DNA of 64,000 nt. Origin: Antedon mediterranea (lineage: Eukaryota > Animalia > Echinodermata). Location: the NCBI RefSeq assembly GCF_964355755.1, contig NC_092675.1:27376912-27440911 (forward strand), written 5' to 3'. How positions within the stretch are numbered: position 1 is the stretch's first letter; each line of letters starts with the position of its first letter. Under the pieces are notes generated by a model, which was not told where the DNA came from, did no database searches, and saw only the letters and a program-made list of their open reading frames with translations. Shown here piece by piece: positions 15,645 to 45,021 of the stretch. The position numbers and the translations under genes are program-made.

Positions 15645-15895
15645 ATTCCAGTTGAAGACCAGTTGGGAAATTTCCCTGTTGTGAATTGAGACAATTACCA
15701 GTTGTGAATTTCCCAGTTGTGAATTTTCCAACTGGTCTGATAATCCCAGTTGTAAATTTTACCAGTTGTAAATTTCTCAACTGGTCTGATAATCCCAGTT
15801 GTGAATTTTCCAACTGGTCTGATCAATCCCAGTTGTAAATTTTCCCAGTTGTACATTTTTCCCAGTTGAGAATTTTCCCAACTGGTAAATTTCAG
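15645..15895. repeat. Left subterminal ccagttg/caactgg repeat array
   Basis: About 15 copies of ccagttg(t) in both orientations. Confidence 0.85.
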
Positions 15896-20371: not shown

Positions 20372-21311
20372 CCAACGCCTCGGGCCGGGTTCACAATAGC
20401 ATAGATTGACGTAGTATGGTCCTGGAATTCCAGAAATGTGCCACTTGCCCCGACCCAGATCGGGCAAGTACGGATTTTAAAGCAATTTAAAATGCGTATT
20501 TTTAGCATTAATTTAGTAAACACCACTTTTATTAAAGTGGTCATATGACCACACACCGACGCCTCGCGTCGGGTACACAATAGTATAGATTGACGTAGTA
20601 TGGTCCTGGCATTCCAGAAATGTGCCACCTGCCCCGGCCCAGTGCGGGCAAGTACGTGTTTTAAAGCAATTTCAAATGCGTATTTTTAGCAATAATTTAC
20701 TAAGAATTAATAGCACCACTTTTAAAGTGGCCATATGACCACACCACGACGCCTCGGGCCGGGTACACAATAATATAGATTGACGTAGTATGGTCCTGGC
20801 ATTCCAGAAATGTGCCACTTGCCCCGGCCCAGTGCGGGCAAGTACGGGTTTTAAAGCAATTTAAAATGCGTATTTTTAGTGTTATTTTACTAAGTATTAA
20901 TAGCACCACTTTTAAAGTGGCAATATGACCACACCCCGACGTCTCGGGCCGGCCGCCGGGTACACAATAGTATAGATTGACGTAGTATGGTCCTGGCTTT
21001 CCAGAAATGTGCCACTTGCCCCGGCCCAGTGCGGGCAAGTACGGATTTTAAAGCAATTTAAAATGCGTATTTTTGGCATTAATTTAGTAAACACCACATT
21101 TAAAGTGGCCATATGACCACACCCCGACGCCTCGGGCCGGGAACACAATAGTATAGATTGACGTAGTATGGTCCTGGCATTCCAGAAATATGCCACTTGC
21201 CCCGGCCCAGTGCCGGCAAGTACCGTACGGATTTTAAAGCAATTTAAAATGCGTATTTTTAGCATTAATTTAGTAAACACCACTTTTAAAGTGGCCATAT
21301 GACCACACCCC
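20372..21311 (-). repeat. 181/190-bp satellite, block A1 (about 5 units)
   Basis: Tandem units ...ggccatatgaccacaccccgacgcctcgggccggg...; continues in phase at 35114. Confidence 0.95.
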
Positions 21312-21330
21312 AGTAGAGGTAGAGGGAATA

Positions 21331-21575
21331 CAGACCCGAATGGAAGGTCATACCCCCAGGGCAGAAGTATTCCAGGCCCAAATGGAATGTCATACCCCCA
21401 GGGCATATTTCATATTTCTATTGTTTAATTTCCAGGTATTGTAATAATAATTAGTGAAAGGTCATTCTTTGTACCAGACCGGAAAGGAATGTCATATCCC
21501 CAGGGTATATATTATATTTTCTATTGTTTAATTTCCTGTTATTGTAATATTAATTAGCGAAAGGTCATTCTTTGT
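21331..21575 (+). repeat. Subterminal repeats of the palindromic element (mirror at ~34850-35095)
   Basis: Three copies of gaa(t/g)gtcata(c/t)ccccaggg and a ~105-bp duplication ending aaaggtcattctttgt. Confidence 0.75.
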
Positions 21576-21909
21576 TAGAGAAGGGGGTTTGTTATTTTGG
21601 CGGGGTTTTCGTTTTGGCCTGGGTTATAATTGTAGTTGGTGATGAATTTGTATTTTAAATATATTAGTGAAGGTAGTTCTTTGTTTGAGGATTGCTATTG
21701 TTATTTTTAGGCGGTTTGACCATTGCATAGGTCGCCTTTGTTTAGTATATCCTAATTTCTTTTGTTCATTGTTCTTTTTGTTTGGTACAATAGTTTTGTA
21801 TTTGATATTTTAGAGCCGTTTCTTTTTAGACATTGTAAGAAGAGGGACTGCTTTTTGTGACCTTTCCAGTTGTTTCGTCTATTTTTACGTGGAGTTACAG
21901 TATTTCGCT

Positions 21910-22461
21910 ATGTCTGGAAGTATAGATTTTTCGTTAGGTAGCTGTGTAGATACAGTTATAATTATTAGCGATGATGAGGAGACTGTTGTTACAGGTAACG
22001 ATATCGGTGATCGGTACATGCGGACTAATGAGGGTGTACCCGCCGGTGTTGATGAAGGAGTTGAGAGGGGTAGCCGGGCTACAAGTTGTATATTTACGTA
22101 CGTAGATGAGGTGGAGAGAGAATTGTTATTGAAATTGGAATATTTAGCCAGAGAAGTGTTTGTTTCTCAAGTGTTAAACATGTGCTGGATGTTAAGTAAA
22201 GCGGCTTGTTATGGTTGCGAATTTGATAGGCCTGGTCAAAAATATCATGACTTCTGCTGTATGAAATCTCCAGAAGAACAGATTGATTATTTTTATCGGG
22301 AGGTTCTGGATAAAGAGTATGTTACAGACAATACCGTGTATAGTGAGTTGAATAAGTACGAGGAATATTCATTACCACGGTATAGACATTTTGTTTACTT
22401 TCTCGTAAATACCTTGACTAATTCAGAGAACCTGTATAAGTTATTGTGTGAGGATATCTAA
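21910..22461 (+). CDS. 183-aa acidic protein with a CYGCEFDRPGQKYHDFCC Cys/His cluster (putative metal-binding), function unknown
   Basis: Long intact ORF in AT-rich DNA, ATG at 21910, identical in both arms. Confidence 0.7.
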   Translation: MSGSIDFSLGSCVDTVIIISDDEETVVTGNDIGDRYMRTNEGVPAGVDEGVERGSRATSCIFTYVDEVERELLLKLEYLAREVFVSQVLNMCWMLSKAACYGCEFDRPGQKYHDFCCMKSPEEQIDYFYREVLDKEYVTDNTVYSELNKYEEYSLPRYRHFVYFLVNTLTNSENLYKLLCEDI

Positions 22462-22623
22462 AACGTGTTTCGCACGTGCCACGGAAAAACGATTGACCGG
22501 AAAACAAACAATTAACAATGCTTTTAATCCGCACGCGTTGTAGGGAGACAATTGACAGGAAAAACAATTAATATCGCTTTAGGCTAATTACTGTTAAAAG
22601 GCTACTTCCGTACTGAGCTGTTA

Positions 22624-22655
22624 CATATATATCGGACCTGATTCAAACGCAGTTT
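22624..22655 (+). promoter_or_regulatory. Putative TATA box plus CAGT initiator for the PC4-AlkB gene
   Basis: catatatatc, then cagt about 25 nt downstream and 19 nt before the ATG at 22669. Confidence 0.4.
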
Positions 22656-22668
22656 TAAAGTACCAACG

Positions 22669-24367
22669 ATGACTACCTCCTCGAAGTTATTGGATCCTAG
22701 AAAATTTTTCAACGGTCAAACAAACGATTTGAGTAAAGCAGCGAAGCCGTCAACAAGTAAAAAATCATTTCACTCTGCCTCAGGAATTAGCGCCATGGAT
22801 TATGCCGAAATGACCGGTGGTGAACCAAAGATTCCAATAACTTCAACGAATCGGATTTTTCTGTCTGAAAAACGCCATGTAGTGGCCCAGCGCTGGGGTG
22901 AAGTTGTTTATGTATGCCTTAGAGAATGTTATCAAACGGAAGAAAATGGTGCCTTCAAACCTGGACCTCTAGGTATTAATTTACCCGTTCTGCTGTGGCA
23001 AAAACTTTTTACCAATATTGATTTAATTCTTCAAGCCCTAGCCAACTTGCAAAGAGACATTAACTTGGTGGAGGCAGTAAGAATCCCACTTTCGGACATA
23101 CTACATGTGGTAGTTAGTAGCTGGAAAGAAGAGCAGTTTGTATGTATTCGCCATTGTTACCAGGCCGAAGAAGGAGGCGAGTTTAAACCCGGCAAAAAAG
23201 GTATTAACCTTCCAAAGAGACAGTGGTACAAGTTAATTGAACAACACGGTGAAATTCAAAAGATGATTGAAGAGGTTGATAATGATAATGCGGTTACCGT
23301 CGATGGTGGTGGTGACGAAAACGATAACGGAGGACGTTTATTCAATTCAGAGCAACAATTGCTATCCCCTGATTGGTTATCTGTGCAAAAAATAACAGGG
23401 GAAAATTTAGATTGTGATTACCTTCAACTTCTTGATAAAGGAACAGCCGATACATTGTTTAAAAAATGTGAGGAAGAGATTGACTATTTTACCGGTGATC
23501 TTGCAAAGGTGAAAGTGTACGGAAAGTGGTTTAATATTCCTAGAAAACAGGTTAGTTCCATTATTATTTTATCCGTGGTTTTGTATTAATGACTTGTTAA
23601 TTACTTGTAGGCCTATATCGTTTCCTTTGTTTTTCTTTATTTACCGCTGGGTAGATGTGTAATTTACTCTTTTACTGTAAATGATTTTATTAGGGCGTGT
23701 TCATTTACATCTCACCAAATAAGATTCTTAAATTACTATGTAATGTATGGTTTTCCCCTCTGTATGTTTCGTTTGGCGATTCGGGCCTAACTTACAAATA
23801 TTCAGGCAATACAGTACCAGCTTTACCGTGGCCACCATTCCTGAAAGATCTCCGCGATCTTTTAAAAACGGTTACAGGACATTACTTCAATTTTGTCTTG
23901 GTCAATCGGTAAATATTCTTGTTTATTATTTTGTTTGTTTTAATTCTATTGTGCAAGTGTTATTTTACTTACATACATCCCCCCTCCCCCAATGGTTAAT
24001 TGGGTGTTTTTTTTTTAATCTCATGTTAAAATACTTTATTTTCTATTGTATTTTGTCGTTACTCTATAGATATGCTACTGGCAGTGATTACATTGGCGAA
24101 CACAAAGATGATGAAAAAGACATGAATCACTTTAGTCCAATCGCCTCTGTATCATTAGGGCAAACACGTATGTTTAGATTTCGACATGGTGATGCGCGAG
24201 GTAAGAGCCCCAAAAGAATAATTGAGCCAGTAACTGTTGATCTTAAACACGGTACATTATTAATGATGAATTATCCCACTAATGAGTACTGGTACCATTC
24301 ACTGCCTAAAAATCAATCCATCAAGCTACCACGAATAAATCTTACGTTTAGAGATATTAAAAGATGA
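22669..24367 (+). CDS. Spliced 2x PC4-like ssDNA-binding domain / ALKBH2-like AlkB dioxygenase fusion, about 440 aa (exons 22669-23550, 23766[or 23724]-23908, 24070-24367)
   Basis: Two PC4-like repeats (VxxWxxxxYVCLRECY..GAFKPGPLGINLP..W; VSSWKEEQFVCIRHCY..GEFKPGKKGINLPKRQW); AlkB motifs KVYGKWFNIPRKQ, FGDSGLTYKYSG, NFVLVNRY, HKDDE, WYHSLP, RINLTFR; GT donors at 23551 and 23909, AG at 24068-24069. Confidence 0.85.
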
Positions 24368-24504
24368 GAGAAATTTTACGCAAACATTAGGCCTAACAGT
24401 CTTCAATAGTGATTGCAGATCTCAAGAACATCAACTGTTCATGATCTGTTTTCATATAGTGTAGTAGTACAAGTTAGATTACTTTTGTGATGATATTTCT
24501 ACAA

Positions 24505-24705
24505 ATGGTTGTATTATTGTATTGAAGTTAATTCACTTAGATATAGGGCTAATTCCATTGATCGTTAATAATAATGTGATTGTTTGTCATAGTGTGGATA
24601 ATGATTAACTTTACGAAACAAATAGTTGTATTATTGTATTGAAATTCACTTAGATTCCATTGATCGTTAATATTCATGTGATTGTGTCCCATTGTGTGGA
24701 TAAAA
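24505..24705 (+). repeat. Tandem ~120-bp duplication in the 3' region of the AlkB gene
   Basis: gttgtattattgtattgaa...ttccattgatcgttaata...gtgtggataa occurs twice. Confidence 0.7.
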
Positions 24706-26036
24706 ATTAAATAATCTCTTAAAAGTAAATTGTATTGTATTTCTAATTGTTATAAATACATGTAACAGTTTCTTATGTTTGCACGTTTTTCTTTAAAGCG
24801 TTTTAACCGTTTAGTTAGTCATTTCTACTAATTTTAACAGAAAAACAAAAAAACTAGACATTCAACCGGACCCCAAACATTGAAATTTGTTTACAAGCAG
24901 GTTATTTCCATTAGCTATTCTAAGGCCTACTTTTTTTTTCTACATGTTTATTTTTCGACTATTTTTAAAAACTTTTTTTATGAATCTTCTGCTGTTTCGT
25001 TAGCAATTTTACAGGCCTGTGTCTTCGCTCTGTAGGCTTAACCTTATAACGGTTCTTTGTAAATGTTCTCTTATTGATGGTTACCTATAGCTCTCTCACA
25101 TCCCTTAATCTAGCACCATTTTATGAAAGATTCCTCAGTAAGGGGTTTATTACTGACGCTAGGTATCATCGACAGGGAATATTAGACAAAACATGACGTC
25201 ACTATTTTTAAAAGGTTTTCTCATTCAAGAACAGCTGACGTCAATGAAGAATACGTTACAACACGATAACTACCGGACAGCAGCAAAAAACATCAACCAA
25301 TCACAAATCTGAGCTACTAGTTAAATAATAAATAAACGAAACAAAGACAAAAGAAAAGGAAATACACTAAACAAATCATTTTCGTCTCGAAGTTATATTA
25401 ACGTAAATTTTTCCTTCACAAAATCACAGGAGACGCGTTTAACGTTTCCAATCACATTATTCAACTCATCAGGTGTAATATCTTTACACAAATCCTTTAT
25501 ATCTTTACTTGTTTTCTTACCAGCTCATATCAAACATGAATATTACTCTAAAGGATTGATGTACGATAAACCCCCCCCCCCCTTTTTTTTCTTTTTTTTT
25601 AAAGTCTGCATAGCGGCACGAGAAAACAATTGATAATGGAGATAAAAAGTTTGTCTTACATTGTTATACAGTAACCTGTGTTTTTCTTTGTTTACACCAT
25701 CTCATTGTTTATAATTATGTATGTTAATGTCGATAGTGTTTCTCTAGTACAGTTTATTACTTGTTTATACTCGTAAAGTTGGCAGGCCTCCATGTTGTTG
25801 GTATATTTTGTAAAAATTGTATTTATGTTTACTTTTTAAAAATCGTTTTATTTGCATTTTATCTCCTCCTGGTTAAAATGAGTGTGATGTTGCTTAAAAA
25901 GTTAACAAGTATAACCACTAAAACGGTTCAATACCTGTAGGAAATCATCAACATTGTAACATGCTGTAAACAATACAAATTAGTTTCACAAATTATTTAA
26001 ACAATAACACTAACAAATTATTAGAATTTAAGAAAA

Positions 26037-26300
26037 TAAAGGTGTACAGATTTTATTTCGATAAAAAAAGTGTACAAAAATAACTTTACAAAAAATGTAC
26101 AGATTAAATTAACAACAACAAAAAATCACACATTAAACTAATTCTTATAAAGGTGTACAGTGTACATTGGCCACAGACATTCTTAAAACGAGGTGTACAG
26201 CTTTTATTTTAAAAAAAAGTATACAAAAATAATTTTACAAAAAGTGTATAGAATAAATTTACAAAAAAAAGTTCACACATTAAACTAATGCTTATAAAAG
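26037..26300 (+). repeat. Tandem ~150-bp duplication rich in tgtaca
   Basis: ggtgtacag.ttttattt...cacacattaaactaat occurs twice. Confidence 0.7.
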
Positions 26301-27217
26301 TCTACATGTCGATGTGTACATGTAACGTGGCATTACCATTAAGAAACAAATACAAACCAAACACTTAACAGCTAAAACAGCATAGCGATCGTTTTCGTAC
26401 GTAAAACAATACCTCCAGCAGGTATATCAACTTTAGTATTTTAAGTATAGGGCCTACACGCGACAAACACACAAACACCCTCTTGAATTGTAGGTACAGG
26501 CCTTTTGCCGTTCGTAATTCAAACTGTTCGGAAAATTGAAGTTAATATTCTGAGATTAGGCCTATAGTCTATGATTGCATTCTGCCTTCCCTCTCAGGAG
26601 CTTAGACTTGTCAACGGTCTAAAAGAGCTGTAATGCAGGATGCGAAACATAACAGTTTATTAATAAACAGTATATTATAACGATAAAGAAACGAATGTAC
26701 GATACACCAATATAACAGTACAATAACTGATTAACTGAAGACTTGAAGTCTACTGTATTCCTACAATCATTCAAGTAGACATTGTTTGTTGAGTGTATGA
26801 TACTTTCTCCAAAGAGAATTCGAACGATGTGTTTTTCGGACGTGTTTCTACGGTTATCAGAACGGGTCGATAATAATTTTAAAAAATAAAAACAAAAACA
26901 AAACAAAAAACGAACAACCTACTAACTTCCAAAAAATCAATACCCAAATAAGCTGAACCTAACCCACTAATTAATAATCTGTTCCATACATCAAAATCGG
27001 CCGAAAATGATCTGAACATTGAAAAGTGGACACGGTCGTCTGTTCTTCTTTTCTGTTTCCACGGCTTGTGACAGCCTCGTTGGTGATAAAGTCATGCGGT
27101 TTACACACTTATGATGACCATATCGCATAACATGTTCAGGGAACTTATTTTTCAACTCTCTGATACAATGTTTAAATACAAGTGGACTGGAAACCATTTA
27201 GGAATAGGGTTTTCTAA

Positions 27218-27882
27218 TAATAAAAGTTGTGTAAAACTTTAGTTATGGTCAAGGAGAATTGGTAAAGACTTGGAGTAAATGGTCAAAGCCGGTGGCAAAT
27301 GGTCAAGACCGAGAGAAAAATTAATGTACACCATTTTATAAGTTTATAGTCAATTATTGTGTTAACATTCATTTATGAATAAATCTGTATACGTATTCAA
27401 TAATAAAAAGAAGAATAACTTTCTTATGCTTAATATCATGAATAACATATCTTTAGTGGTTAAGGTAATATATTATTTCTCTGTATACTGCCGTCACACA
27501 TATAGATAAAGAGAGACTGTCCATTAATAAAAGTTGTGTAAAACTTTAGTTTTGGTCAAGGGGATTGGTCAAGACTTGAAGTAAATGGTCGAGACTTGGA
27601 GTAAATGGTCGAGACCGGGGGAAAATGGTCAAGACAGGGAGAAAATGATCAAGACAGGGAGAAAATGATCAAGACAGGGAGAAAAATTAATGTATACAAT
27701 TTTATAAGTTTATAGCCACTTATTGTGTTAAATTTCATTTATGATTAAACCTGTATACGTATTCAATAATAAAAAATTAATTTTCCTTCACTTAATATCA
27801 TGAATAACATATCTTTAGTGGTTAAGGTATTATATTATTTCTCTGTATACTGACCTCACAAATATAGATAAAGAGAGACTGT
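27218..27882 (+). repeat. Two ~300-355-bp tandem units containing iterated aaatggtcaagac 20-mers (mirror at 28540-29204)
   Basis: taataaaagttgtgtaaaactttagtt...gataaagagagactgt occurs twice; about 12 (t)ggtcaa/ggtcga/gatcaa motifs at ~20-nt spacing. Confidence 0.85.
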
Positions 27883-28179
27883 AACTAAAGGTTTATTGAT
27901 TATTAGGGTTACAGTGAGAGTTCTATGCAAACATTAAAAGGCCAATTAACGAGCCACCCAACTTAATTAAGTACCGGTACCTAACAAATGCGCTCAAACT
28001 CTATGCAGGTTACAACTCTACAAAAGAGGACATTGTATTTTTAAACTAGGGTTAAACATGAAAAAGGTCAATTACTTGAACTCTGAACATTGGAAAAAGG
28101 GTTGTGTCAATTGACACTTGAACTTTACCTCTAGACAAGGAGGAATGGACAGTTACAATTTACCATTAAACTCTGGTCA

Positions 28180-28242
28180 ACCGTTTTATTGGGGGGCTCT
28201 CAAATTTCGACGAAGTCGAAAATTGAAACTCCCATGCTTTTG
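28180..28242. other. Central imperfect hairpin (palindrome axis) with c(GAA)g triloop
   Basis: tcaaatttcgac-GAA-gtcgaaaattga (28200-28226, one A/A mismatch), partial ggggggc/actccc pairing, unpaired flanks. Confidence 0.9.
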
Positions 28243-31200
28243 TGACCAGAGTTTAATGGTAAATTGTAACTGTCCATTCCTCCTTGTCTAGAGGTAAAGT
28301 TCAAGTGTCAATTGACACAACCCTTTTTCCAATGTTCAGAGTTCAAGTAATTGACCTTTTTCATGTTTAACCCTAGTTTAAAAATACAATGTCCTCTTTT
28401 GTAGAGTTGTAACCTGCATAGAGTTTGAGCGCATTTGTTAGGTACCGGTACTTAATTAAGTTGGGTGGCTCGTTAATTGGCCTTTTAATGTTTGCATAGA
28501 ACTCTCACTGTAACCCTAATAATCAATAAACCTTTAGTTACAGTCTCTCTTTATCTATATTTGTGAGGTCAGTATACAGAGAAATAATATAATACCTTAA
28601 CCACTAAAGATATGTTATTCATGATATTAAGTGAAGGAAAATTAATTTTTTATTATTGAATACGTATACAGGTTTAATCATAAATGAAATTTAACACAAT
28701 AAGTGGCTATAAACTTATAAAATTGTATACATTAATTTTTCTCCCTGTCTTGATCATTTTCTCCCTGTCTTGATCATTTTCTCCCTGTCTTGACCATTTT
28801 CCCCCGGTCTCGACCATTTACTCCAAGTCTCGACCATTTACTTCAAGTCTTGACCAATCCCCTTGACCAAAACTAAAGTTTTACACAACTTTTATTAATG
28901 GACAGTCTCTCTTTATCTATATGTGTGACGGCAGTATACAGAGAAATAATATATTACCTTAACCACTAAAGATATGTTATTCATGATATTAAGCATAAGA
29001 AAGTTATTCTTCTTTTTATTATTGAATACGTATACAGATTTATTCATAAATGAATGTTAACACAATAATTGACTATAAACTTATAAAATGGTGTACATTA
29101 ATTTTTCTCTCGGTCTTGACCATTTGCCACCGGCTTTGACCATTTACTCCAAGTCTTTACCAATTCTCCTTGACCATAACTAAAGTTTTACACAACTTTT
29201 ATTATTAGAAAACCCTATTCCTAAATGGTTTCCAGTCCACTTGTATTTAAACATTGTATCAGAGAGTTGAAAAATAAGTTCCCTGAACATGTTATGCGAT
29301 ATGGTCATCATAAGTGTGTAAACCGCATGACTTTATCACCAACGAGGCTGTCACAAGCCGTGGAAACAGAAAAGAAGAACAGACGACCGTGTCCACTTTT
29401 CAATGTTCAGATCATTTTCGGCCGATTTTGATGTATGGAACAGATTATTAATTAGTGGGTTAGGTTCAGCTTATTTGGGTATTGATTTTTTGGAAGTTAG
29501 TAGGTTGTTCGTTTTTTGTTTTGTTTTTGTTTTTATTTTTTAAAATTATTATCGACCCGTTCTGATAACCGTAGAAACACGTCCGAAAAACACATCGTTC
29601 GAATTCTCTTTGGAGAAAGTATCATACACTCAACAAACAATGTCTACTTGAATGATTGTAGGAATACAGTAGACTTCAAGTCTTCAGTTAATCAGTTATT
29701 GTACTGTTATATTGGTGTATCGTACATTCGTTTCTTTATCGTTATAATATACTGTTTATTAATAAACTGTTATGTTTCGCATCCTGCATTACAGCTCTTT
29801 TAGACCGTTGACAAGTCTAAGCTCCTGAGAGGGAAGGCAGAATGCAATCATAGACTATAGGCCTAATCTCAGAATATTAACTTCAATTTTCCGAACAGTT
29901 TGAATTACGAACGGCAAAAGGCCTGTACCTACAATTCAAGAGGGTGTTTGTGTGTTTGTCGCGTGTAGGCCCTATACTTAAAATACTAAAGTTGATATAC
30001 CTGCTGGAGGTATTGTTTTACGTACGAAAACGATCGCTATGCTGTTTTAGCTGTTAAGTGTTTGGTTTGTATTTGTTTCTTAATGGTAATGCCACGTTAC
30101 ATGTACACATCGACATGTAGACTTTTATAAGCATTAGTTTAATGTGTGAACTTTTTTTTGTAAATTTATTCTATACACTTTTTGTAAAATTATTTTTGTA
30201 TACTTTTTTTTAAAATAAAAGCTGTACACCTCGTTTTAAGAATGTCTGTGGCCAATGTACACTGTACACCTTTATAAGAATTAGTTTAATGTGTGATTTT
30301 TTGTTGTTGTTAATTTATTCTGTACATTTTTTGTAAAGTTATTTTTGTACACTTTTTTTATCGAAATAAAATCTGTACACCTTTATTTTCTTAAATTCTA
30401 ATAATTTGTTAGTGTTATTGTTTAAATAATTTGTGAAACTAATTTGTATTGTTTACAGCATGTTACAATGTTGATGATTTCCTACAGGTATTGAACCGTT
30501 TTAGTGGTTATACTTGTTAACTTTTTAAGCAACATCACACTCATTTTAACCAGGAGGAGATAAAATGCAAATAAAACGATTTTTAAAAAGTAAACATAAA
30601 TACAATTTTTACAAAATATACCAACAACATGGAGGCCTGCCAACTTTACGAGTATAAACAAGTAATAAACTGTACTAGAGAAACACTATCGACATTAACA
30701 TACATAATTATAAACAATGAGATGGTGTAAACAAAGAAAAACACAGGTTACTGTATAACAATGTAAGACAAACTTTTTATCTCCATTATCAATTGTTTTC
30801 TTGTGCCGCTATGCAGACTTTAAAAAAAAAGAAAAAAAGGGGGGGGGGGGTTTATCGTACATCAATCCTTTAGAGTAATATTCATGTTTGATATGAGCTG
30901 GTAAGAAAACAAGTAAAGATATAAAGGATTTGTGTAAAGATATTACACCTGATGAGTTGAATAATGTGATTGGAAACGTTAAACGCGTCTCCTGTGATTT
31001 TGTGAAGGAAAAATTTACGTTAATATAACTTCGAGACGAAAATGATTTGTTTAGTGTATTTCCTTTTCTTTTGTCTTTGTTTCGTTTATTTATTATTTAA
31101 CTAGTAGCTCAGATTTGTGATTGGTTGATGTTTTTTGCTGCTGTCCGGTAGTTATCGTGTTGTAACGTATTTTTCATTGACGTCAGCTGTTCTTGAATGA

Positions 31201-32058
31201 GAAAACCTTTTAAAAATAGTGACGTCATGTTTTGTCTAATATTCCCTGTCGATGATACCTAGCGTCAGTAATAAACCCCTTACTGAGGAATCTTTCATAA
31301 AATGGTGCTAGATTAAGGGATGTGAGAGAGCTATAGGTAACCATCAATAAGAGAACATTTACAAAGAACCGTTATAAGGTTAAGCCTACAGAGCGAAGAC
31401 ACAGGCCTGTAAAATTGCTAACGAAACAGCAGAAGATTCATAAAAAAAGTTTTTAAAAATAGTCGAAAAATAAACATGTAGAAAAAAAAAGTAGGCCTTA
31501 GAATAGCTAATGGAAATAACCTGCTTGTAAACAAATTTCAATGTTTGGGGTCCGGTTGAATGTCTAGTTTTTTTGTTTTTCTGTTAAAATTAGTAGAAAT
31601 GACTAACTAAACGGTTAAAACGCTTTAAAGAAAAACGTGCAAACATAAGAAACTGTTACATGTATTTATAACAATTAGAAATACAATACAATTTACTTTT
31701 AAGAGATTATTTAATTTTTATCCACACAATGGGACACAATCACATGAATATTAACGATCAATGGAATCTAAGTGAATTTCAATACAATAATACAACTATT
31801 TGTTTCGTAAAGTTAATCATTATCCACACTATGACAAACAATCACATTATTATTAACGATCAATGGAATTAGCCCTATATCTAAGTGAATTAACTTCAAT
31901 ACAATAATACAACCATTTGTAGAAATATCATCACAAAAGTAATCTAACTTGTACTACTACACTATATGAAAACAGATCATGAACAGTTGATGTTCTTGAG
32001 ATCTGCAATCACTATTGAATTGAAGACTGTTAGGCCTAATGTTTGCGTAAAATTTCTC

Positions 32059-33757
32059 TCATCTTTTAATATCTCTAAACGTAAGATTTATTCTTGGTAG
32101 CTTGATGGATTGATTTTTAGGCAGTGAATGGTACCAGTACTCATTAGTGGGATAATTCATCATTAATAATGTACCGTGTTTAAGATCAACAGTTACTGGC
32201 TCAATTATTCTTTTGGGGCTCTTACCTCGCGCATCACCATGTCGAAATCTAAACATACGTGTTTGCCCTAATGATACAGAGGCGATTGGACTAAAGTGAT
32301 TCATGTCTTTTTCATCATCTTTGTGTTCGCCAATGTAATCACTGCCAGTAGCATATCTATAGAGTAACGACAAAATACAATAGAAAATAAAGTATTTTAA
32401 CATGAGATTAAAAAAAAAACACCCAATTAACCATTGGGGGAGGGGGGATGTATGTAAGTAAAATAACACTTGCACAATAGAATTAAAACAAACAAAATAA
32501 TAAACAAGAATATTTACCGATTGACCAAGACAAAATTGAAGTAATTCCCTGTAACCGTTTTTAAAAGATCGCGGAGATCTTTCAGGAATGGTGGCCACGG
32601 TAAAGCTGGTACTGTATTGCCTGAATATTTGTAAGTTAGGCCCGAATCGCCAAACGAAACATACAGAGGGGAAAACCATACATTACATAGTAATTTAAGA
32701 ATCTTATTTGGTGAGATGTAAATGAACACGCCCTAATAAAATCATTTACAGTAAAAGAGTAAATTACACATCTACCCAGCGGTAAATAAAGAAAAACAAA
32801 GGAAACGATATAGGCCTACAAGTAATTAACAAGTCATTAATACAAAACCACGGATAAAATAATAATGGAACTAACCTGTTTTCTAGGAATATTAAACCAC
32901 TTTCCGTACACTTTCACCTTTGCAAGATCACCGGTAAAATAGTCAATCTCTTCCTCACATTTTTTAAACAATGTATCGGCTGTTCCTTTATCAAGAAGTT
33001 GAAGGTAATCACAATCTAAATTTTCCCCTGTTATTTTTTGCACAGATAACCAATCAGGGGATAGCAATTGTTGCTCTGAATTGAATAAACGTCCTCCGTT
33101 ATCGTTTTCGTCACCACCACCATCGACGGTAACCGCATTATCATTATCAACCTCTTCAATCATCTTTTGAATTTCACCGTGTTGTTCAATTAACTTGTAC
33201 CACTGTCTCTTTGGAAGGTTTATACCTTTTTTGCCGGGTTTAAACTCGCCTCCTTCTTCGGCCTGGTAACAATGGCGAATACATACAAACTGCTCTTCTT
33301 TCCAGCTACTAACTACCACATGTAGTATGTCCGAAAGTGGGATTCTTACTGCCTCCACCAAGTTAATGTCTCTTTGCAAGTTGGCTAGGGCTTGAAGAAT
33401 TAAATCAATATTGGTAAAAAGTTTTTGCCACAGCAGAACGGGTAAATTAATACCTAGAGGTCCAGGTTTGAAGGCACCATTTTCTTCCGTTTGATAACAT
33501 TCTCTAAGGCATACATAAACAACTTCACCCCAGCGCTGGGCCACTACATGGCGTTTTTCAGACAGAAAAATCCGATTCGTTGAAGTTATTGGAATCTTTG
33601 GTTCACCACCGGTCATTTCGGCATAATCCATGGCGCTAATTCCTGAGGCAGAGTGAAATGATTTTTTACTTGTTGACGGCTTCGCTGCTTTACTCAAATC
33701 GTTTGTTTGACCGTTGAAAAATTTTCTAGGATCCAATAACTTCGAGGAGGTAGTCAT
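32059..33757 (-). CDS. Mirror copy of the PC4-PC4-AlkB fusion (exons 33757-32876, 32660-32518, 32356-32059)
   Basis: Inverted copy; differs by one H>N change in exon 2 and two synonymous changes. Confidence 0.85.
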
Positions 33758-33963
33758 CGTTGGTACTTTAAAACTGCGTTTGAATCAGGTCCGATATATA
33801 TGTAACAGCTCAGTACGGAAGTAGCCTTTTAACAGTAATTAGCCTAAAGCGATATTAATTGTTTTTCCTGTCAATTGTCTCCCTACAACGCGTGCGGATT
33901 AAAGCATTGTTAATTGTTTGTTTTCCGGTCAATCGTTTTTCCGTGGCACGTGCGAAACACGTT

Positions 33964-34515
33964 TTAGATATCCTCACACAATAACTTATACAGGTTCTCT
34001 GAATTAGTCAAGGTATTTACGAGAAAGTAAACAAAATGTCTATACCGTGGTAATGAATATTCCTCGTACTTATTCAACTCACTATACACGGTATTGTCTG
34101 TAACATACTCTTTATCCAGAACCTCCCGATAAAAATAATCAATCTGTTCTTCTGGAGATTTCATACAGCAGAAGTCATGATATTTTTGACCAGGCCTATC
34201 AAATTCGCAACCATAACAAGCCGCTTTACTTAACATCCAGCACATGTTTAACACTTGAGAAACAAACACTTCTCTGGCTAAATATTCCAATTTCAATAAC
34301 AATTCTCTCTCCACCTCATCTACGTACGTAAATATACAACTTGTAGCCCGGCTACCCCTCTCAACTCCTTCATCAACACCGGCGGGTACACCCTCATTAG
34401 TCCGCATGTACCGATCACCGATATCGTTACCTGTAACAACAGTCTCCTCATCATCGCTAATAATTATAACTGTATCTACACAGCTACCTAACGAAAAATC
34501 TATACTTCCAGACAT
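33964..34515 (-). CDS. Mirror copy of the 183-aa Cys/His-motif ORF
   Basis: Identical translation in the ORF track. Confidence 0.7.
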   Translation of the reverse strand: MSGSIDFSLGSCVDTVIIISDDEETVVTGNDIGDRYMRTNEGVPAGVDEGVERGSRATSCIFTYVDEVERELLLKLEYLAREVFVSQVLNMCWMLSKAACYGCEFDRPGQKYHDFCCMKSPEEQIDYFYREVLDKEYVTDNTVYSELNKYEEYSLPRYRHFVYFLVNTLTNSENLYKLLCEDI

Positions 34516-35113
34516 AGCGAAATACTGTAACTCCACGTAAAAATAGACGAAACAACTGGAAAGGTCACAAAAAGCAGTCCCTCTTCTTACAATGTCTAAA
34601 AAGAAACGGCTCTAAAATATCAAATACAAAACTATTGTACCAAACAAAAAGAACAATGAACAAAAGAAATTAGGATATACTAAACAAAGGCGACCTATGC
34701 AATGGTCAAACCGCCTAAAAATAACAATAGCAATCCTCAAACAAAGAACTACCTTCACTAATATATTTAAAATACAAATTCATCACCAACTACAATTATA
34801 ACCCAGGCCAAAACGAAAACCCCGCCAAAATAACAAACCCCCTTCTCTAACAAAGAATGACCTTTCGCTAATTAATATTACAATAACAGGAAATTAAACA
34901 ATAGAAAATATAATATATACCCTGGGGATATGACATTCCTTTCCGGTCTGGTACAAAGAATGACCTTTCACTAATTATTATTACAATACCTGGAAATTAA
35001 ACAATAGAAATATGAAATATGCCCTGGGGGTATGACATTCCATTTGGGCCTGGAATACTTCTGCCCTGGGGGTATGACCTTCCATTCGGGTCTGTATTCC
35101 CTCTACCTCTACT

Positions 35114-38100
35114 CACCCCGACGCCTCGGGCCGGGTACACAATAGTATAGATTGACGTAGTATGGTCCTGACTTTCCAGAAATGTGCCACTTGCCCCGGC
35201 CCAGTGCGGGAAAGTACGTGTTTAAAAGCAATTTCAAATGCGTATTTTTAGCATTAATTTACTAAGAATTAATAGCACCACTTTTAAAGTGGCCATATGA
35301 CCACACCCCAACGCCTCGGGCCGGGAACACAATAGTATAGATTGACGTAGAATGGTCCTGGCATTCCAGAAATGTGCCACTTGCCCCGGCCCAGTGCGGG
35401 CAAGTACTGATTTTAAAGCAATTTCAAATGCGTATTTTTAGAATTAATTTACTAAGAATTAATAGCACCACATTTAAAGTGGCCATATGACCACACCCCG
35501 ACGCCTCGGGCCGGGAACACAATAGTATAGATTGACGTAGTATGGTCCTGGCATTCCAGAAATATACCACTTGCCCCGGCCCAGTGCCGGCAAGTACGGA
35601 TTTTAAAGCAATTTAAATGCGTATTTTTAGCATTAATTTAGTAAACACCACTTTTAAAGTGGCCATATGACCACACCCCGACGCCTCGGGCCGGGTACAC
35701 AATAGTATAGATTGACGTAGTATGGTCCTGACTTTCCAGAAATGTGCCACTTGCCCCGGCCCAGTGCGGGAATTACGTGTTTAAAAGCAATTTCAAATGC
35801 GTATTTTTAGCATTAATTTACTAAGAATTAATAGCACCACTTTTAAAGTGGCCATATGACCACACCCCAACGCCTCGGGCCGGGAACACAATAGTATAGA
35901 TTGACGTAGAATGGTCCTGGCATTCCAGAAATGTGCCACTTGCCCCGGCCCAGTGCGGGCAAGTACGGATTTTAAAGCAATTTAAAATGCGTATTTTTAG
36001 CATTAATTTAGTAAACACCACTTTTAAAGTGGCCATATGACCACACCCCGACGCGTCGGGCCGGGTACACAATAGTATAGATTGACTTAGTATGGTCCTG
36101 GCTTTCCAGAAATGTGCCACTTGCCCCGGCCCAGTGCGGGCAACTACGTGTTTAAAAGCAATTTCAAATGCGTTTTTTAGCATTAATTTACTAAGAATTA
36201 ATAGCACCACATTTAAAGTGGCCATATGACCACACCCCGACGCCTCGGGCCGGGAACACAATAGTATAGATTGACGTAGTATGGTCCTGGCATTCCAGAA
36301 ATATACCACTTGCCCCGGCCCAGTGCCGGCAAGTACGGATTTTAAAGCAATTTAAAATGCGTATTTTTAGCATTAATTTAGTAAACACCACTTTTAAAGT
36401 GGCCATATGACCACACCCCGACGCCTCGGGCCGGGTACACAATAGTATAGATTGACGTAGTATGGTCCTGACTTTCCAGAAATGTGCCACTTGCCCCGGC
36501 CCAGTGCGGGAATTACGTGTTTAAAAGCAATTTCAAATGCGTATTTTTAGCATTGATTTACTAAGAATTAATAGCACCACTTTTAAAGTGGCCACATGAC
36601 CACACCCCAACGCCTCGGGCCGGGAACACAATAGTATAGATTGACGTAGAATGGTCCGGACATTCCAGAAATGTGCCACTTGCCCCGGCCCAGTGCGGGC
36701 AAGTACGTGTTTTAAAGCAATTTAAAATGCGTGTTTTTAGTGTTATTTTACTAAGTATTAATAGCACCACTTTTAAAGTGGCAATATGACCACACCCCGA
36801 CGCCTCGGGCCGGATTCACAATAGTATAGATTGACGTAGTATGGTCCTGACTTTCCAGAAATGTGCCACTTGCCCCGGCCCAGTGCGGGCAAGTACGTGT
36901 TTAAAAGCAATTTCAAATGCGTATTTTTAGTGTTATTTTACTAAGTATTAATAGCACCACTTTTAAAGTGGCCATATGACCACACCCCGACGCCTCGGGC
37001 CGGGTACACAATAATATAGGTTGACGTAGTATGGTCCTGACTTTCCAGAAATGTGCCACTTGCCCCGGCCCAGTGCGGGAATTACGTGTTTAAAAGCAAT
37101 TTCAAATGCGTATTTTTAGCATTAATTTACTAAGAATTAATAGCACCACTTTTAAAGTGGCCATATGACCACACCCCAACGCCTCGGGCCGGATTCACAA
37201 TAGTATAGATTGACGTAGTATGGTCCTGACTTTCCAGAAATGTGCCACTTGCCCCGGCCCAGTGCGGGAATTACGTGTTTAAAAGCAATTTCAAATGCGT
37301 ATTTTTAGCATTAATTTACTAAGAATTAATAGCACCACTTTTAAAGTGGCCATATGACCACACCCCAACGCCTCGGGCCGGGAACACAATAGTATAGATT
37401 GACGTAGAATGGTCCTGGCATTCCAGAAATGTGCCACTTGCCCCGGCCCAGTGCGGGCAAGTACGGATTTTAAAGCAATTTAAAATGCGTATTTTTAGCA
37501 TTAATTTAGTAAACACCACTTTTAAAGTGGCCATATGACCACACCCCGACGCGTCGGGCCGGGTACACAATAGTATAGATTGACTTAGTATGGTCCTGGC
37601 TTTCCAGAAATGTGCCACTTGCCCCGGCCCAGTGCGGGCAACTACGTGTTTAAAAGCAATTTCAAATGCGTTTTTTAGCATTAATTTACTAAGAATTAAT
37701 AGCACCACATTTAAAGTGGCCATATGACCACACCCCGACGCCTCGGGCCGGGAACACAATAGTATAGATTGACGTAGTATGGTCCTGGCATTCCAGAAAT
37801 ATACCACTTGCCCCGGCCCAGTGCCGGCAAGTACGGATTTTAAAGCAATTTAAAATGCGTATTTTTAGCATTAATTTAGTAAACACCACTTTTAAAGTGG
37901 CCATATGACCACACCCCGACGCCTCGGGCCGGGTACACAATAGTATAGATTGACGTAGTATGGTCCTGACTTTCCAGAAATGTGCCACTTGCCCCGGCCC
38001 AGTGCGGGAATTACGTGTTTAAAAGCAATTTCAAATGCGTATTTTTAGCATTAATTTACTAAGAATTAATAGCACCACTTTTAAAGTGGCCATATGACCA

Positions 38101-39860
38101 CACCCCAACGCCTCGGGCCGGGAACACAATAGTATAGATTGACGTAGAATGGTCGGACATTCCAGAAATGTGCCACTTGCCCCGGCCCAGTGCGGGCAAG
38201 TACGTGTTTTAAAGCAATTTAAAATGCGTGTTTTTAGTGTTATTTTACTAAGTATTAATAGCACCACTTTTAAAGTGGCAATATGACCACACCCCGACGC
38301 CTCGGGCCGGGTACATAATAGTATGGATTGACGTAGAAAGGTCCAGACTTTCTAGAAATGTGCCACTTGCCCCGGCCCAGTGCGGGCCAGTACGTGTTTT
38401 AAAGCAATTTAAAATGCGTATTTTTAGTGTTATTTTACTAAGTATTAATAGCACCACTTTTAAAGTGGCCATATGACCACACCCCGACGCCTCGGGCCGG
38501 GTACACAATAGTATAGATTGACGCAGTATGGTCCTGGCTTTCCAGAAATGTGCCACTTGCCCCGGCCCAGTGCGGGCAAGTACGGATTTTAAAGCAATTT
38601 AAAATGCGTATTTTTAGCATTAATTTAGTAAACACCACTTTTAAAGTGGCCATATGACCACACCCCGACGCCTCGGGTTGGGTTCACAATAGTATAGATT
38701 GATGTAGAATGGTCCTGGCATTCCATAAACGTGCCACTTGCCCCGGCCCAGTGCGGGCAAGTACATGTTTGAAAGCAATTTCAACTGCGTATTTTTAGCA
38801 TTAATTTACTAAGAATTAATAGCACCACATTTAAAGTGGCCATATGACCACACCCCGACGCCTCGGGCCGGGAACACAATAGTATAGATTAACGTAGTAT
38901 GGTCCTGGCATTCCAGAAATATGCCACTTGCCCCGGCCCAGTGCGGGCAAGTACGGATTTTAAAGCAATTTAAAATGCGTATTTTTAGTGTTATTTTACT
39001 AAGTATTAATAGCACCACTTTTAAAGTGGCAATATGACCACACCCCCGACGCCTCGGGCCGGGTTCACAATAGTATGGATTGACGTAGAAAGGTCCAGAC
39101 TTTCTAGAAATGTGCCACTTGCTCCGGCCCAGTGCGGGCCAGTACGTGTTTTAAAGCAATTTAAAATGCGTATTTTTAGTGTTATTTTACTAAGTATTAA
39201 TAGCACCACTTTTAAAGTGGCCATATGACCACACCCCGACGCCTCGGGCCGGGTACACAATAGTATAGATTGACGCAGTATGGTCCTGGCTTTCCAGAAA
39301 TGTGCCACTTGCCCCGGCCCAGTGCGGGCAAGTACGGATTTTAAAGCAATTTAAAATGCGTATTTTTAGCATTAATTTAGTAAACACCACTTTTAAAGTG
39401 GCCATATGACCACACCCCGACGCCTTGGGTCGGGTTCACAATAGTATAGATTGTTGATGTAGAATGGTCCTGGCATTCCATAAACGTGCCACTTGCCCCG
39501 GCCCAGTGCGGGCAAGTACGTGTTTAAAAGCAATTTAAAATGCGTATATTTAGTGTTTTTTTTACTAAGTATTAACAGCACTACTTTTAAAGTGGCAATA
39601 TGACCACACCCCGACGCCTCGCGCCGGGTTCACAATAGTATGGATTGACGTACGTAGAATGGTCCTGAAATTCCAGAAATGTGCCACTTGCCCCGGACCA
39701 GTGCGGGCAAGTACGTGTTTTAAAGCTATTTAAAATGCGTATTTTTAGCATTAATTTAGTAAACGCCACTTTTAAAGTGGCCATATGACCACACCCCGAC
39801 GCCTCGGGCCGGGTACACAATAGTATAGATTGACGTAGTATGGTCCTGACTTTCCAGAAA
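35114..39860 (-). repeat. 181/190-bp satellite, block A2 (about 25 units, with higher-order repeats)
   Basis: Unit spacing 190 and 180/181 nt; identical ORF pairs 1498 nt apart (35821/37319) and 752 nt apart (38438/39190). Confidence 0.95.
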
Positions 39861-39869
39861 CACTTTAAA

Positions 39870-41377
39870 GTGCTTTAAAACACGTACTTGCCCGCACTGG
39901 GCCGGGGCAAGTGGCACATTTATGGAATGCCAGGACCATACTACGTCAATCTATACTATTGTGAACCCGGCCCGAGGCGTCGGGGTGTGGTCATATTGCC
40001 ACTTTAAAAGTGGTGCTATTAATACTTAGTAAAAAACACTAAAAATACGCATTTTAAATTGCTTTAAAACACGTACTCGCCCGCACCAGGCCGGGGCAAG
40101 TGGTACATTTCTGGAATGCCAGGACCATACTACGTCAATCTATACTATCGTGAACCCGACCCGAGGCGTCGGTGTGTGGTCATAATGGCCAGTTTAAAAG
40201 TGGTGTTTACTAAATTAATGCTAAAAATACGCATTTTAAATTGCTATAAAATCCGTACTTGCCCGCACTGGGCCGGGGCAAGTGGAACATTTCTGGAATG
40301 CCAGGATCATACTACGTCAATCTATATTATTGTGTACCCGGCCCGAGGCGTCGGGGTGTGGTCATATGGCCACTTTAAATGTGGTGCTATTAATTCTTAG
40401 TAAATTAATGCTAAAAATACGCATTTTAAATTGCTTTAAAACACGTACTTGCCAACACTGGGCCGGGGCAAGTGGCACATTTATGGAATGCCAGGACCAT
40501 TCTACATCAATCTATACTATTGTGAACCCGACCCGGGGCGTCGGGGTGTGGTCATATGGCCACTTTAAAAGTGGTGTTTACTAAATTAATGCTAAAAATA
40601 CGCATTTTAAATTGCTTTAAAATCCGTACTTGCCCGCACTGGGCCGGGGCAAGTGGCACATTTCTGGAAAGCCAGGACACTACTACGTCAATCTATACTA
40701 TTGTGTACCCGACCTGAGGCGTTGGGGTGTGGTCATACGGCCACTTTAAAAGTGGTGCTATTATAATACTTAGTAAAATAACACTAAAAAGACGCATTTT
40801 AAATTGCTTTAAAACCCCTACTTGCCCACACTGGGCCGGGGCAAGTGGCACATTTCTGGAATGCCAGGACCATACTACGTCAATCTATACTATTGTGTAC
40901 CCGGTCCGAGGCGTCGGGGTGTGGTCATATGGCCACTTTAAAAGTTGTGTTTACTAAAAATGCTAAAAATACGCATTTTATATTGCTTTAAAATCCGTAC
41001 TTGCCCGCACTGGGCCGGGGCAAGTGGCATATTTCTGGAATGCCAGGACAGTACTACGTCAATCTATACTATTGTGTACCAGGCCCGAGGGGCCGGGGTG
41101 TGGTCATATTATGGCCACTTTAAATGTGGTGCTATTAATTCTTAGTAAATTAATGCTAAAAATACGCATTTGAAATTGCTTTTAAATACGTACTTGCCCG
41201 CACTGGGCCGGGGCAAGTGGCACATTTCTGGAAAGCCAGGACCATACTACGTCAATCTATACTATTGTGTACCCGGCCCGAGGCGTCGGGGTGTGGTCAT
41301 ATTGCCACTTTAAAAGTGGTGCTTTTAATACTTAGTAAAATAACACTAAAAATACGCATTTTAAATTGCTTTAAAAC
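39870..41377 (+). repeat. 181/190-bp satellite, block B1 (about 8 units, opposite orientation)
   Basis: Reverse-complement units begin after cactttaaagtg. Confidence 0.95.
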
Positions 41378-41634
41378 CCTTCACTTTATAATTGAAACCT
41401 TTCCTGAATAAAATCGACACGCCTGCACTAGTCGAGTTATTAATACTATGTACACAATCACCTTTCCAAATCGATTTGAATTTTTTAAATAAATCTTGTG
41501 TAAGATGTGTTTCCTGTAACAGTACCACATCCGTTTTTTGATCTTTACACCATTTTTTCAATTTGTAATTGCTTGGTATTATCACGCAAACCTCGTATAT
41601 TTAACGAGATACAATGAAAATTTGAATTAAACAT
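41378..41634 (-). pseudogene. LINE ORF2 apurinic-type endonuclease N-terminus, frameshifted and truncated
   Basis: MFNSNFHCISLNIRGLRD, then after a frameshift KKWCKDQKTDVVLLQETHL...SAGVSILFRK. Confidence 0.85.
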
Positions 41635-41742
41635 TGATCGGTTTATTTAAAGAACCATTGGTAATTATACATACACACATTAATACCAGTATTAAAGGAA
41701 AATAGCGAAAGTAGCATGCACAACTATTATAGTATAACACTC

Positions 41743-42747
41743 TCACTTTTCTATAGTTACTTGTTTTTTACTTTTACCGGATTTTCTTCTTCTCTTTGAG
41801 CCTGGCAAGGTAGGAGAGATGTTTTCCTCGTCATCCTTTTGTTCGTTGGTGTTAATCACTTTTCCCTTTACCTTCTTCTCGCTGGTTGAGGCTTGTTTAA
41901 GGAAGTCCGTGATCTTGCCTTGCTTCTCTTGAAGTTCATGCCTTTCACTTTCTTCCTTGTCTTCCTCTTCACTGCCTGTACTTTCCTCCGAGCTTGAAAC
42001 TTCTTCATTAATAATTTCTTTGTTTTCATGTGTGTTAGCATCTTTCGTATTGTTCTTAACGATGACACGTTCCCACATATCTTGAATTAGTTGTTCTCCA
42101 GAGTCGTTAAGTAATAACTTTTCCGCACTGCACTCATCTTTTCTATGCCCTTCTAATCCACATGCCATGCATACGATGTTATTTGAACATTTGGATGCAT
42201 TATGACCGATCTTTAAACACCTTGAGCATTTGATCCTTTCATCTGTTTGCCCATTGTGGAAGAGCCTAACTTTAAAGTCATTTATGCTCAGGAATCTTGG
42301 TAATGGTGCTTGTAATTTGTCAACGTAAAACATCCGATCGCCATTCAGACAACTAGTGAGTTGCCCATCAACCCTTATCTTCATACGTTGAATGTCGCCT
42401 TTTATTTTAACGTTAAAACGTATCAAGGATTTCCGTATTTCGTCATCCGCTACCGAGAGCGGCAAATCTTTCACTGTGACTCTGATAGAGTCTATATCGT
42501 ATTGTAGGTATGGATTTTTATCATATATTTGTATGTTCCTACCTTTAATATTCAGTCCCGTTGTTATCAGCTTTACTCTATCTTCTTGGCAATTTATGTA
42601 TAATCTCCACAAATTCTTGATCCTTTGTATTCCAGTAATATTTCGACTTTCAACACACTTCATCAGTACCTTATAAATATCTTGTGGTTCAACATATTTA
42701 TCACTGACAGTATTTACTTCGTCTACTTTCATGAATACCGGTTTCAC
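41743..42747 (-). CDS. LINE ORF1 gag-like protein with two CCHC zinc knuckles (N-terminus, probable ATG 44821, separated by an insertion)
   Basis: CSRCLKIGHNASKC and CMACGLEGHRKDEC; RVTVKDLPLSV and NGDRMFY motifs; charged tail. Confidence 0.85.
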   Translation of the reverse strand: MKPVFMKVDEVNTVSDKYVEPQDIYKVLMKCVESRNITGIQRIKNLWRLYINCQEDRVKLITTGLNIKGRNIQIYDKNPYLQYDIDSIRVTVKDLPLSVADDEIRKSLIRFNVKIKGDIQRMKIRVDGQLTSCLNGDRMFYVDKLQAPLPRFLSINDFKVRLFHNGQTDERIKCSRCLKIGHNASKCSNNIVCMACGLEGHRKDECSAEKLLLNDSGEQLIQDMWERVIVKNNTKDANTHENKEIINEEVSSSEESTGSEEEDKEESERHELQEKQGKITDFLKQASTSEKKVKGKVINTNEQKDDEENISPTLPGSKRRRKSGKSKKQVTIEK

Positions 42748-42758
42748 TGGATCGCCGG

Positions 42759-44749: not shown

Positions 44750-45021
44750 CCGGGATGCCGCGTCTTTGATCACATGATCTGAAGGCGCGTTTTTCGAGTG
44801 ACTAGGCCGATTCGTCGTCATTTTTTTTTTCAAAGCTCAGAATTCTGGTTAATTCCCAAACAAATAAAAAATACGCCTTACCTGGTTGTACACTTATACT
44901 GTGAAATACTTTAGATTCAATATATCACAACATTCAAGCAAAAAAAACCGATATTTTTAGTAAGGTTTTGCCGAGCTGATACACGTATACGTCTCCATAG
45001 AGAAAAGTATATCGCCCTCTC

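Follow-up and report, generated by a model that had tools for sequence, protein, structure and literature searches.

Polintons, also named Mavericks, encode "by definition" a protein-primed polymerase and an integrase, according to the available part of PMC5499653. In the available part of PMC8097293, intact vertebrate Mavericks are 12.7–24.6 kilobases (kb) long and intron-less, with accessory genes beside their ends, inverted repeats of 46–1,447 base pairs (bp), termini of the form (AGT)2//(ACT)2 or (AG)3//(CT)3 and target-site duplications of 6 bp. An echinoderm representative is Polinton-1_SP of the sea urchin (PMC3014272, excerpted text). The subject of the present analysis is a 13.8-kb element at positions 21312–35113 of a 64,000-nucleotide (nt) stretch of the feather star Antedon mediterranea (NC_092675.1), the whole of which is referred to as the window. 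The element shares with Polintons/Mavericks the AG..CT ends, possibly with a short repeated end motif, the 6-bp duplication, terminal inverted repeats, genes placed by the ends and a length within the vertebrate range. However, its inverted repeats of 6.87 kb exceed the vertebrate Maverick range about five-fold, its cargo gene is interrupted by introns, unlike the genes of intact vertebrate Mavericks, and it carries no recognisable gene for a protein-primed polymerase, integrase, ATPase, protease or capsid. Because these core genes are missing, the element is not a Polinton by definition and can at most be a non-autonomous derivative.

Two extrachromosomal systems are comparable in layout. Hairpin plasmids derived from Kluyveromyces pGKL1 are said to have been reported by Kikuchi et al. 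in 1985, and the SYREC form of adenovirus 12 reportedly has a symmetric structure, as the title of its description indicates. As is proposed for the element, one genome end is mirrored in both, and the identical ends are origins of copying. Both are laboratory isolates, whereas the element belongs to an integrated germ-line family. Both also depend on a helper, which for the "symmetric recombinant" SYREC is a functional adenovirus (PMC2396429, in part).

The element is one member of a palindromic, multi-copy family. The reading favoured, on balance, is that of a non-autonomous Polinton/Maverick-type satellite that is mobilised in trans and probably replicates as a snap-back hairpin. Full-text searches of the literature found no published description of palindromic Polinton/Maverick derivatives. 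New here are the feather-star family itself, the concerted arms around a conserved centre in two coded organisms, and the cargo.

A palindromic family with a copy inserted in satellite DNA

Positions 21312–35113 form a single palindrome, in which four inverted-repeat blocks pair 21312–28179 with 28243–35113 and cover 99.5% of the length. The left arm of 6,868 nt and the right arm of 6,871 nt are separated by a centre of 63 nt. When the left arm was aligned, with gaps, to the reverse-complemented right arm, 6,859 of 6,866 aligned bases matched. The arms differ by seven substitutions (left-arm positions 23205, 23879, 23880, 24332, 25249, 25620 and 26104) and by three insertions or deletions, which comprise 1 nt at 22522, the 5-nt TTCAA at 32020–32024 and 1 nt in a homopolymer at 25583. 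The centre as a whole is not self-complementary; its score was reached by 27 of 500 shuffles, a weak signal.

The element starts with AGTAGAGGTAGAG... at the left and finishes with ...CTCTACCTCTACT at the right, which places AGTAGA..TCTACT at its termini. The 25-nt terminus occurs in the window at the two element ends only, and shuffled sequences are expected to contain it zero times. Both flanks consist of a 190-nt satellite that continues in the same orientation and in phase across the element. An empty site rebuilt from 60 nt of the left flank and 60 nt of the right, with one CACCCC removed, is identical to the satellite unit at 35620–35740 in 120 of 120 positions. The window contains the uninterrupted junction word 17 times on its plus strand and 12 times on its minus strand, and contains no doubled CACCCC. 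The element is thus a true insertion with a 6-bp target-site duplication. Since the flanks maintain one satellite orientation and are not mirrored, the palindrome is not an artefact of fold-back reads, which would have mirrored the flanks too. A blastn search with the arm (E ≤ 1e-5) found no further copies in the rest of the window, and a search for Rfam families in the window found none.

The original prediction, which was made from the letters of the window, had described AGTAG..CTACT ends, a CACCCC duplication interrupting a satellite unit, and arms mirrored right up to a 63-nt centre. The ends and the duplication are borne out by the empty-site identity, and the mirrored structure stands, but the arms are not perfect. 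Its assignment of the ends to the Polinton signature holds for AG..CT and for the length of the duplication, but the terminal hexamer AGTAGA agrees with the common vertebrate (AGT)2 in five of six places and not in all six; the consensus is a vertebrate one and may differ in echinoderms. The features of the element and its flanks are as follows.

20375–21311 and 35114–39860, no strand: host 190-nt satellite forming the flanks
21306–21311, no strand: left copy of the target-site duplication, CACCCC, from the empty-site match
21312–28179, plus strand: left arm, 6,868 nt, from inverted-repeat blocks and gapped alignment
21312–21326, plus strand: terminus AGTAGA, with GTAGAG twice directly after the first A, from the sequence
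21330–21575, plus strand: subterminal direct repeats, a 46-nt unit three times and a 58-nt unit twice, at 103-nt spacing
21910–22461, plus strand: open reading frame 1 (ORF1), 183 amino acids, with a family of 27 relatives found by HMMER
22669–24367, plus strand: PC4x2-ALKBH2 gene in three exons (22669–23550, 23766–23908 and 24070–24367), from Pfam and an open spliced frame
24368–28179, no strand: AT-rich inner arm, with no frame above 102 amino acids and no family match
27213–27882: duplicated blocks of about 307–366 nt in the inner arm
27566–27685: inner-arm array of a 20-nt unit, six copies
28180–28242, no strand: centre, 63 nt, between the arms
28205–28221: small hairpin TTTCGAC-GAA-GTCGAAA inside the centre
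28243–35113, minus strand: right arm, 6,871 nt, mirroring the left and holding ORF1' and PC4-ALKBH2'
32059–33757, minus strand: PC4-ALKBH2', mirror copy of the fusion gene in the right arm
33964–34515, minus strand: ORF1', mirror copy of ORF1 in the right arm
35114–35119, no strand: right copy of the target-site duplication, CACCCC

The subterminal repeats are putative protein-binding sites.

The evidence for a family comes from contigs of public sequencing runs. Part of the arm is present in eleven runs from five studies, with no RNA run listed among them, and three of the eleven carried the analysis: X1 and X5, which are from one coded organism (A) and from different studies, and X6, which is from a second (B). 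Arm contigs were placed on 21100–28400 in 30 bins and centre contigs on 27800–28330; the depths are sums over contigs and not copy numbers. All 30 arm bins are covered in each of X1, X5 and X6. X1 has 2,481 contigs on the arm, which divide into 944 at an identity of at least 99%, 992 at 95–99% and 545 at 90–95%. The corresponding numbers are 62, 88 and 56 among the 206 contigs of X5, and 70, 73 and 72 among the 215 contigs of X6. Run X10 covers 13 of the 30 bins at a depth below 5, and run X11 has no contig on the centre. Arm contigs also contain internal-deletion joints, at 21580>22290 (X1 and X6), 26170>26419 (X1 and X5), 21701>23887, 24354>25279 and 27245>27553, some of which are common to runs of different organisms. 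A diverged terminus in X5, found as a loose end before 21342, also starts with AGTAGA.

The centre is covered in X1, X5 and X6 at a depth similar to that of the adjoining arm. A single 151-nt contig of X6 (record 24) spans 28136–28286 and thus includes the centre and 44 nt of each arm. In this run, variant sequence that differs from the arms in the window precedes 28171 and follows 28251, and the two 25-letter stretches concerned are perfectly reverse-complementary. The variant flanks sit symmetrically, 9 nt from the centre on either side, and the right-hand variant is also present in X1 (two contigs) and X5. Such mirrored variants around a shared centre indicate a diverged subfamily in which the two arms changed together. 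The element therefore belongs to a palindromic family and is not a one-off, as it would be if the window held the only palindromic copy: the arm is multi-copy in three runs and the mirrored centre recurs in X6. That mirror arms enclose the same centre both in contigs of a second organism and in a diverged subfamily also makes it most likely that the element was already a palindrome when it was inserted, in agreement with the original prediction.

The T at left-arm position 23205 is absent from all X1, X5 and X6 contigs, all of which carry the A of the right arm, and it is either a private change of the window copy or a consensus error.

Gene content of the arms

Pfam was run on 25 frames of the arm, seven of at least 70 amino acids and 18 of at least 45, and only PC4 and 2OG-FeII_Oxy_2 scored above their cut-offs. 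None of these frames matched a protein-primed polymerase, a retrovirus-like (rve) integrase, a capsid protein, a packaging ATPase or a maturation protease, and the longest unassigned frame has 102 amino acids. A minus-strand frame at 21885–22166 resembled the hAT dimerisation domain with an E value of 0.059, under the cut-off, and was dropped. Two genes per arm were identified. The expectations that no Polinton core gene would be visible and that the element would carry cargo of its own are both supported, the first as far as Pfam can show.

The larger of the two genes encodes a fusion protein in which two PC4 domains precede an ALKBH2-type dioxygenase. Its predicted spliced frame is open for 440 amino acids in both arms, with a single residue difference between the arm copies (H333N), and the gene has a TATA word at 22626 and an AATAAA at 24334. 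The N-terminal part matches PC4 (PF02229) in two stretches with an E value of 2e-22 and 78.9 bits against a cut-off of 25, and the dioxygenase matches 2OG-FeII_Oxy_2 (PF13532) with 1.5e-19 and 71.5 bits against a cut-off of 31.2. In comparisons with Protein Data Bank (PDB) sequences, the AlkB part aligns with the ALKBH2 chain 3rzg_A at 1e-33 and the PC4 part with PC4 at 1e-5. The ligands of iron and 2-oxoglutarate are kept in the AlkB part, as HxD in EHKDDE, H in WYHSLP and RxxxxxR in RINLTFR. The exon joins agree with those of the annotated Antedon mediterranea paralogues P0005 and P0004. The acceptor of intron 1 (23551–23765) reads AT instead of AG in both arms. One X5 contig lacks exactly this intron (joint 23550>23766, the shorter side being 22 letters). 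This joint was rejected as proof of splicing or of a processed copy; that X5 is RNA is a guess.

Eight related proteins were found, six of them from Antedon mediterranea and encoded on contigs of 22–41 Mb. These six are 52–96% identical to the fusion over the N-terminal 294 amino acids, and none of them is the product of the window itself. The AlkB domain is 95–98.5% identical to those of the element-family paralogues that have the full domain (P0005, P0007 and P0008), 85% identical to an ALKBH2-like protein of Antedon (P0009) and 75% identical to ALKBH2 of Anneissia (P0010). The closest relative outside the element family is thus the feather star's own ALKBH2-like protein, P0009. The fusion matches ALKBH2 in its AlkB part and PC4/Sub1 in its two N-terminal domains, whereas the host-type proteins P0009 and P0010 have no PC4 domain. 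PC4-ALKBH2 fusions were seen only among Antedon mediterranea proteins, and no large Atlas cluster matched. A scan of JGI metagenome contigs with the cargo protein returned one unrelated contig (L001) with a 34% AlkB match. As judged from these identities, the most economical reading is that the cargo AlkB is a host ALKBH2 captured within the Antedon lineage.

Identity between the fusion and P0005 varies along the protein, from 48% at the N-terminus to 85% in the first PC4 domain, 80% in the second and 98% in AlkB. The last value fits a stronger constraint on AlkB, and may also reflect recombination between subfamilies. Variants were classed among the best-supported 40 of 336 differences, and within this set the fusion gene has 6 synonymous and 8 non-synonymous changes, too few to judge selection. 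The fusion is predicted to repair alkylated single-stranded DNA. Its conserved AlkB suggests that alkylation of a single-stranded intermediate may be countered by the element itself; AlkB is credited with a comparable role in some RNA viruses.

The second gene, ORF1, encodes an N-terminal part with a hydrophobic-plus-acidic run and a C-terminal helical domain. An exhaustive HMMER search yielded 27 relatives (P0012–P0038) at E ≤ 1e-3, the best at 4.7e-11. One of these, the WD40 protein P0016, matches over the low-complexity N-terminal part only. Across the others the domain keeps C100, G102, Q110, H113 and C116 invariant, within the motif C-x-G-C-x3-[HR]-P-S-Q-x2-H-D-x-C. An uncharacterised protein of the feather star Anneissia japonica (P0013) is 39% identical to ORF1 over 72 amino acids, and in P0018 the ORF1 domain is placed behind a PC4 domain in one protein. 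AlphaFold2 with the alignment gave a predicted local distance difference test (pLDDT) value of 75 overall and above 85 at residues 70–180, so that residues 65–183 are modelled with confidence as helical, whereas folding from the single sequence gave a useless pLDDT of 37.6.

No Pfam family covers the domain in ORF1 or its relatives, and Foldseek searches of the PDB and BFVD found no structural neighbour at E ≤ 0.001. The best VIA-align Z score was 6.8, which lies within the range common for helical models, and the best match of the ORF1 profile to PDB sequences had an E value of 0.87. A word-based protein search found nothing, and the same search with the family profile found three proteins named only "hypothetical protein". 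The best Atlas score was 0.84, which is a lead only, and none of 70 stretches picked by pattern from IMG/VR viral contigs was confirmed as a member of the family. A resemblance to DFF40 (16.5 bits against a cut-off of 25) was dropped as chance. By sequence comparison, ORF1 defines a conserved, unnamed eukaryotic Cys/His protein family that has no Pfam entry. Among the same listed variants, four positions in ORF1 are synonymous and five, in four codons, are not; these too are few for a judgement on selection. Several relatives carry N-terminal hydrophobic-plus-acidic runs like that of ORF1, such as VIIISDDEE, and these presumably recall SUMO-interaction motifs.

Proposed origin of the palindrome

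Polinton/Maverick replication is held to be protein-primed on account of the genes these elements carry; to our knowledge it has never been observed directly. In the favoured reading, a self-complementary strand would have arisen when the protein-primed polymerase of a helper, at work on one end of a linear element, changed strands or folded back. This strand would snap back into a duplex arm with an ordinary origin at one end and the other end closed by the 63-nt centre, where the small hairpin at 28205–28221 could be the turning point. Copying round the loop would then restore the full palindrome with two identical ends, which the integrase of the helper would insert with a 6-bp duplication. 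In each round the displaced strands would refold, and the arms would be re-templated or mismatch-corrected against each other while subfamilies drift. Refolding of a displaced strand on itself would in this way keep the arms alike. The PC4x2-ALKBH2 protein would bring an alkylation-repair dioxygenase to the single-stranded stage. The position of the cargo genes, which adjoin the ends as Maverick accessory genes do, supports the reading.

Several observations weigh against it. No helper was found, though no whole genome could be searched for one; the terminus is absent from IMG/VR viral contigs and the centre is absent from JGI metagenome contigs. The link to Polintons consists of two to five terminal bases and the length of the duplication, the hexamer AGTAGA departs from (AGT)2 at one place, and the 6-bp duplication is known from the window copy alone. 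The introns of the cargo fit the capture of a host gene and give no sign of a viral origin. Arm-to-arm gene conversion would explain the concerted arms equally well and requires no hairpin replication. Among the listed contigs of X1, none reaches across the centre from one arm to the other, and coverage there comes from the overlapping records 6, 7 and 8. Only one listed contig of X5 lies over the centre (record 16), and over 30 letters its left overhang does not mirror the right one; an asymmetric copy or a transcript would account for this. In favour of the palindrome as a family trait, none of the other centre-flanking loose ends, among twelve tabulated, continues into unrelated sequence. 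The three 46-nt subterminal repeats and the internal deletions are also typical of cut-and-paste families, and a helper of the cut-and-paste type would explain the mobility of the element.

The last two points lead to the alternative that survives best, namely a giant fold-back element of a cut-and-paste superfamily, either known or still undescribed, moved by a transposase that makes 6-bp duplications, with arms that are long terminal inverted repeats maintained by conversion and with a coincidental likeness to Polintons. This is unlikely but deserves consideration, given subterminal repeats within 270 nt of the end, internal-deletion derivatives among many copies, an end signature that is short and no Polinton gene or helper seen. 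The candidate families compared, FB and Ginger, do not fit. In Drosophila FB elements the duplications measure 9 bp and the arms consist of short tandem repeats. FB-type transposons resemble the element in their very long inverted arms, short middle, many copies and frequent lack of a transposase gene, but the arms of the element hold genes and unique sequence, tandem repeats are a minor part of them and the duplication is 6 bp. With the FB marks taken as commonly given, the gene-bearing arms and the 6-bp duplication do not fit an FB identity. Ginger elements have TGTNR ends and 4–5-bp duplications in the available part of PMC2836005, and the AGTAG ends and 6-bp duplication of the element do not fit this identity either. 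Furthermore, Mavericks as given in the excerpt of PMC8097293 combine AG..CT ends and a 6-bp duplication with a length range that includes 13.8 kb, and the terminal hexamer of the element is kept in a diverged subfamily.

A new type of autonomous element, in which ORF1 and PC4-ALKBH2 would suffice for copying and insertion, perhaps with host replication and repair enzymes, is improbable. Both genes are intact in both arms, the ORF1 family is conserved and unnamed, and the fusion of ORF1 and PC4 domains in P0018 makes the two genes look like one module. However, Pfam, profile and structure searches found no nuclease, recombinase or polymerase fold in either protein, whereas a staggered 6-bp cut requires an integrase or a transposase, and an AlkB that is closest to a host ALKBH2-like protein, at 85% identity, is what captured cargo would be expected to show. 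Least probable is that assembly created the palindrome, or that an ordinary element was rearranged once in place. Fold-back reads are known to give perfect palindromes, the junctions of the window copy were not verified by reads and some arm differences could be consensus errors, as at 23205, where the left-arm base is in no contig of the three runs. Against this, the flanks are unmirrored parts of one satellite unit with a fully identical empty site, short-read contigs of organism B place the centre between mirror arms, and centre and adjoining arm have similar depth in three runs.

If the reading of a satellite copied through a snap-back hairpin is correct, a family of mirrored Polinton ends is the product expected of strand switching in a protein-primed replicon. 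The co-changing arms would then record a replication process in the germ line, for which the integrated copies provide a natural record, and it would be seen that palindromes on the kilobase scale, although usually fragile, can be tolerated by the hundreds in animal genomes. The cargo is of interest in itself, as an ALKBH2 of the host joined to a pair of single-strand-DNA-binding domains and intact in both arms. A fuller picture, which is offered tentatively and is itself rather doubtful, is that feather stars harbour hairpin-replicating parasites of Polinton viruses, each a folded-back virus end with re-templated arms, in which the host ALKBH2 would be retargeted by the PC4 pair and the Cys/His protein would act as its partner.

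Neighbouring repeats in the window

The satellite that flanks the element reverses its direction, head to head, over about 3 nt at 39861–39863, between the arrays at 35114–39860 and 39864–41377. The array at 39864–41377 and a further one at 45022–47152 are the reverse complement of that at 35114–39860. They are separated by a second insertion into the satellite, of about 3.6 kb at 41378–45021, the ends of which are unlike those of the palindrome. This insertion contains a 330-nt tandem duplication at 43040–43688 and a minus-strand frame of 350 amino acids at 41743–42795, which had no Pfam match at E ≤ 0.01 and in which two CX2CX4HX4C knuckles and an acidic, lysine-rich tail were recognised, the knuckles by eye. 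At the edge of the satellite, positions 47150–47373 hold about 11 copies of the 20-nt unit CCAGTTGACCAGTTGAAAAA. Related to it is an array 31 kb distant, at 15698–15892, which is built on CCAGTTG and repeats with periods of 16, 33 and 49 nt.

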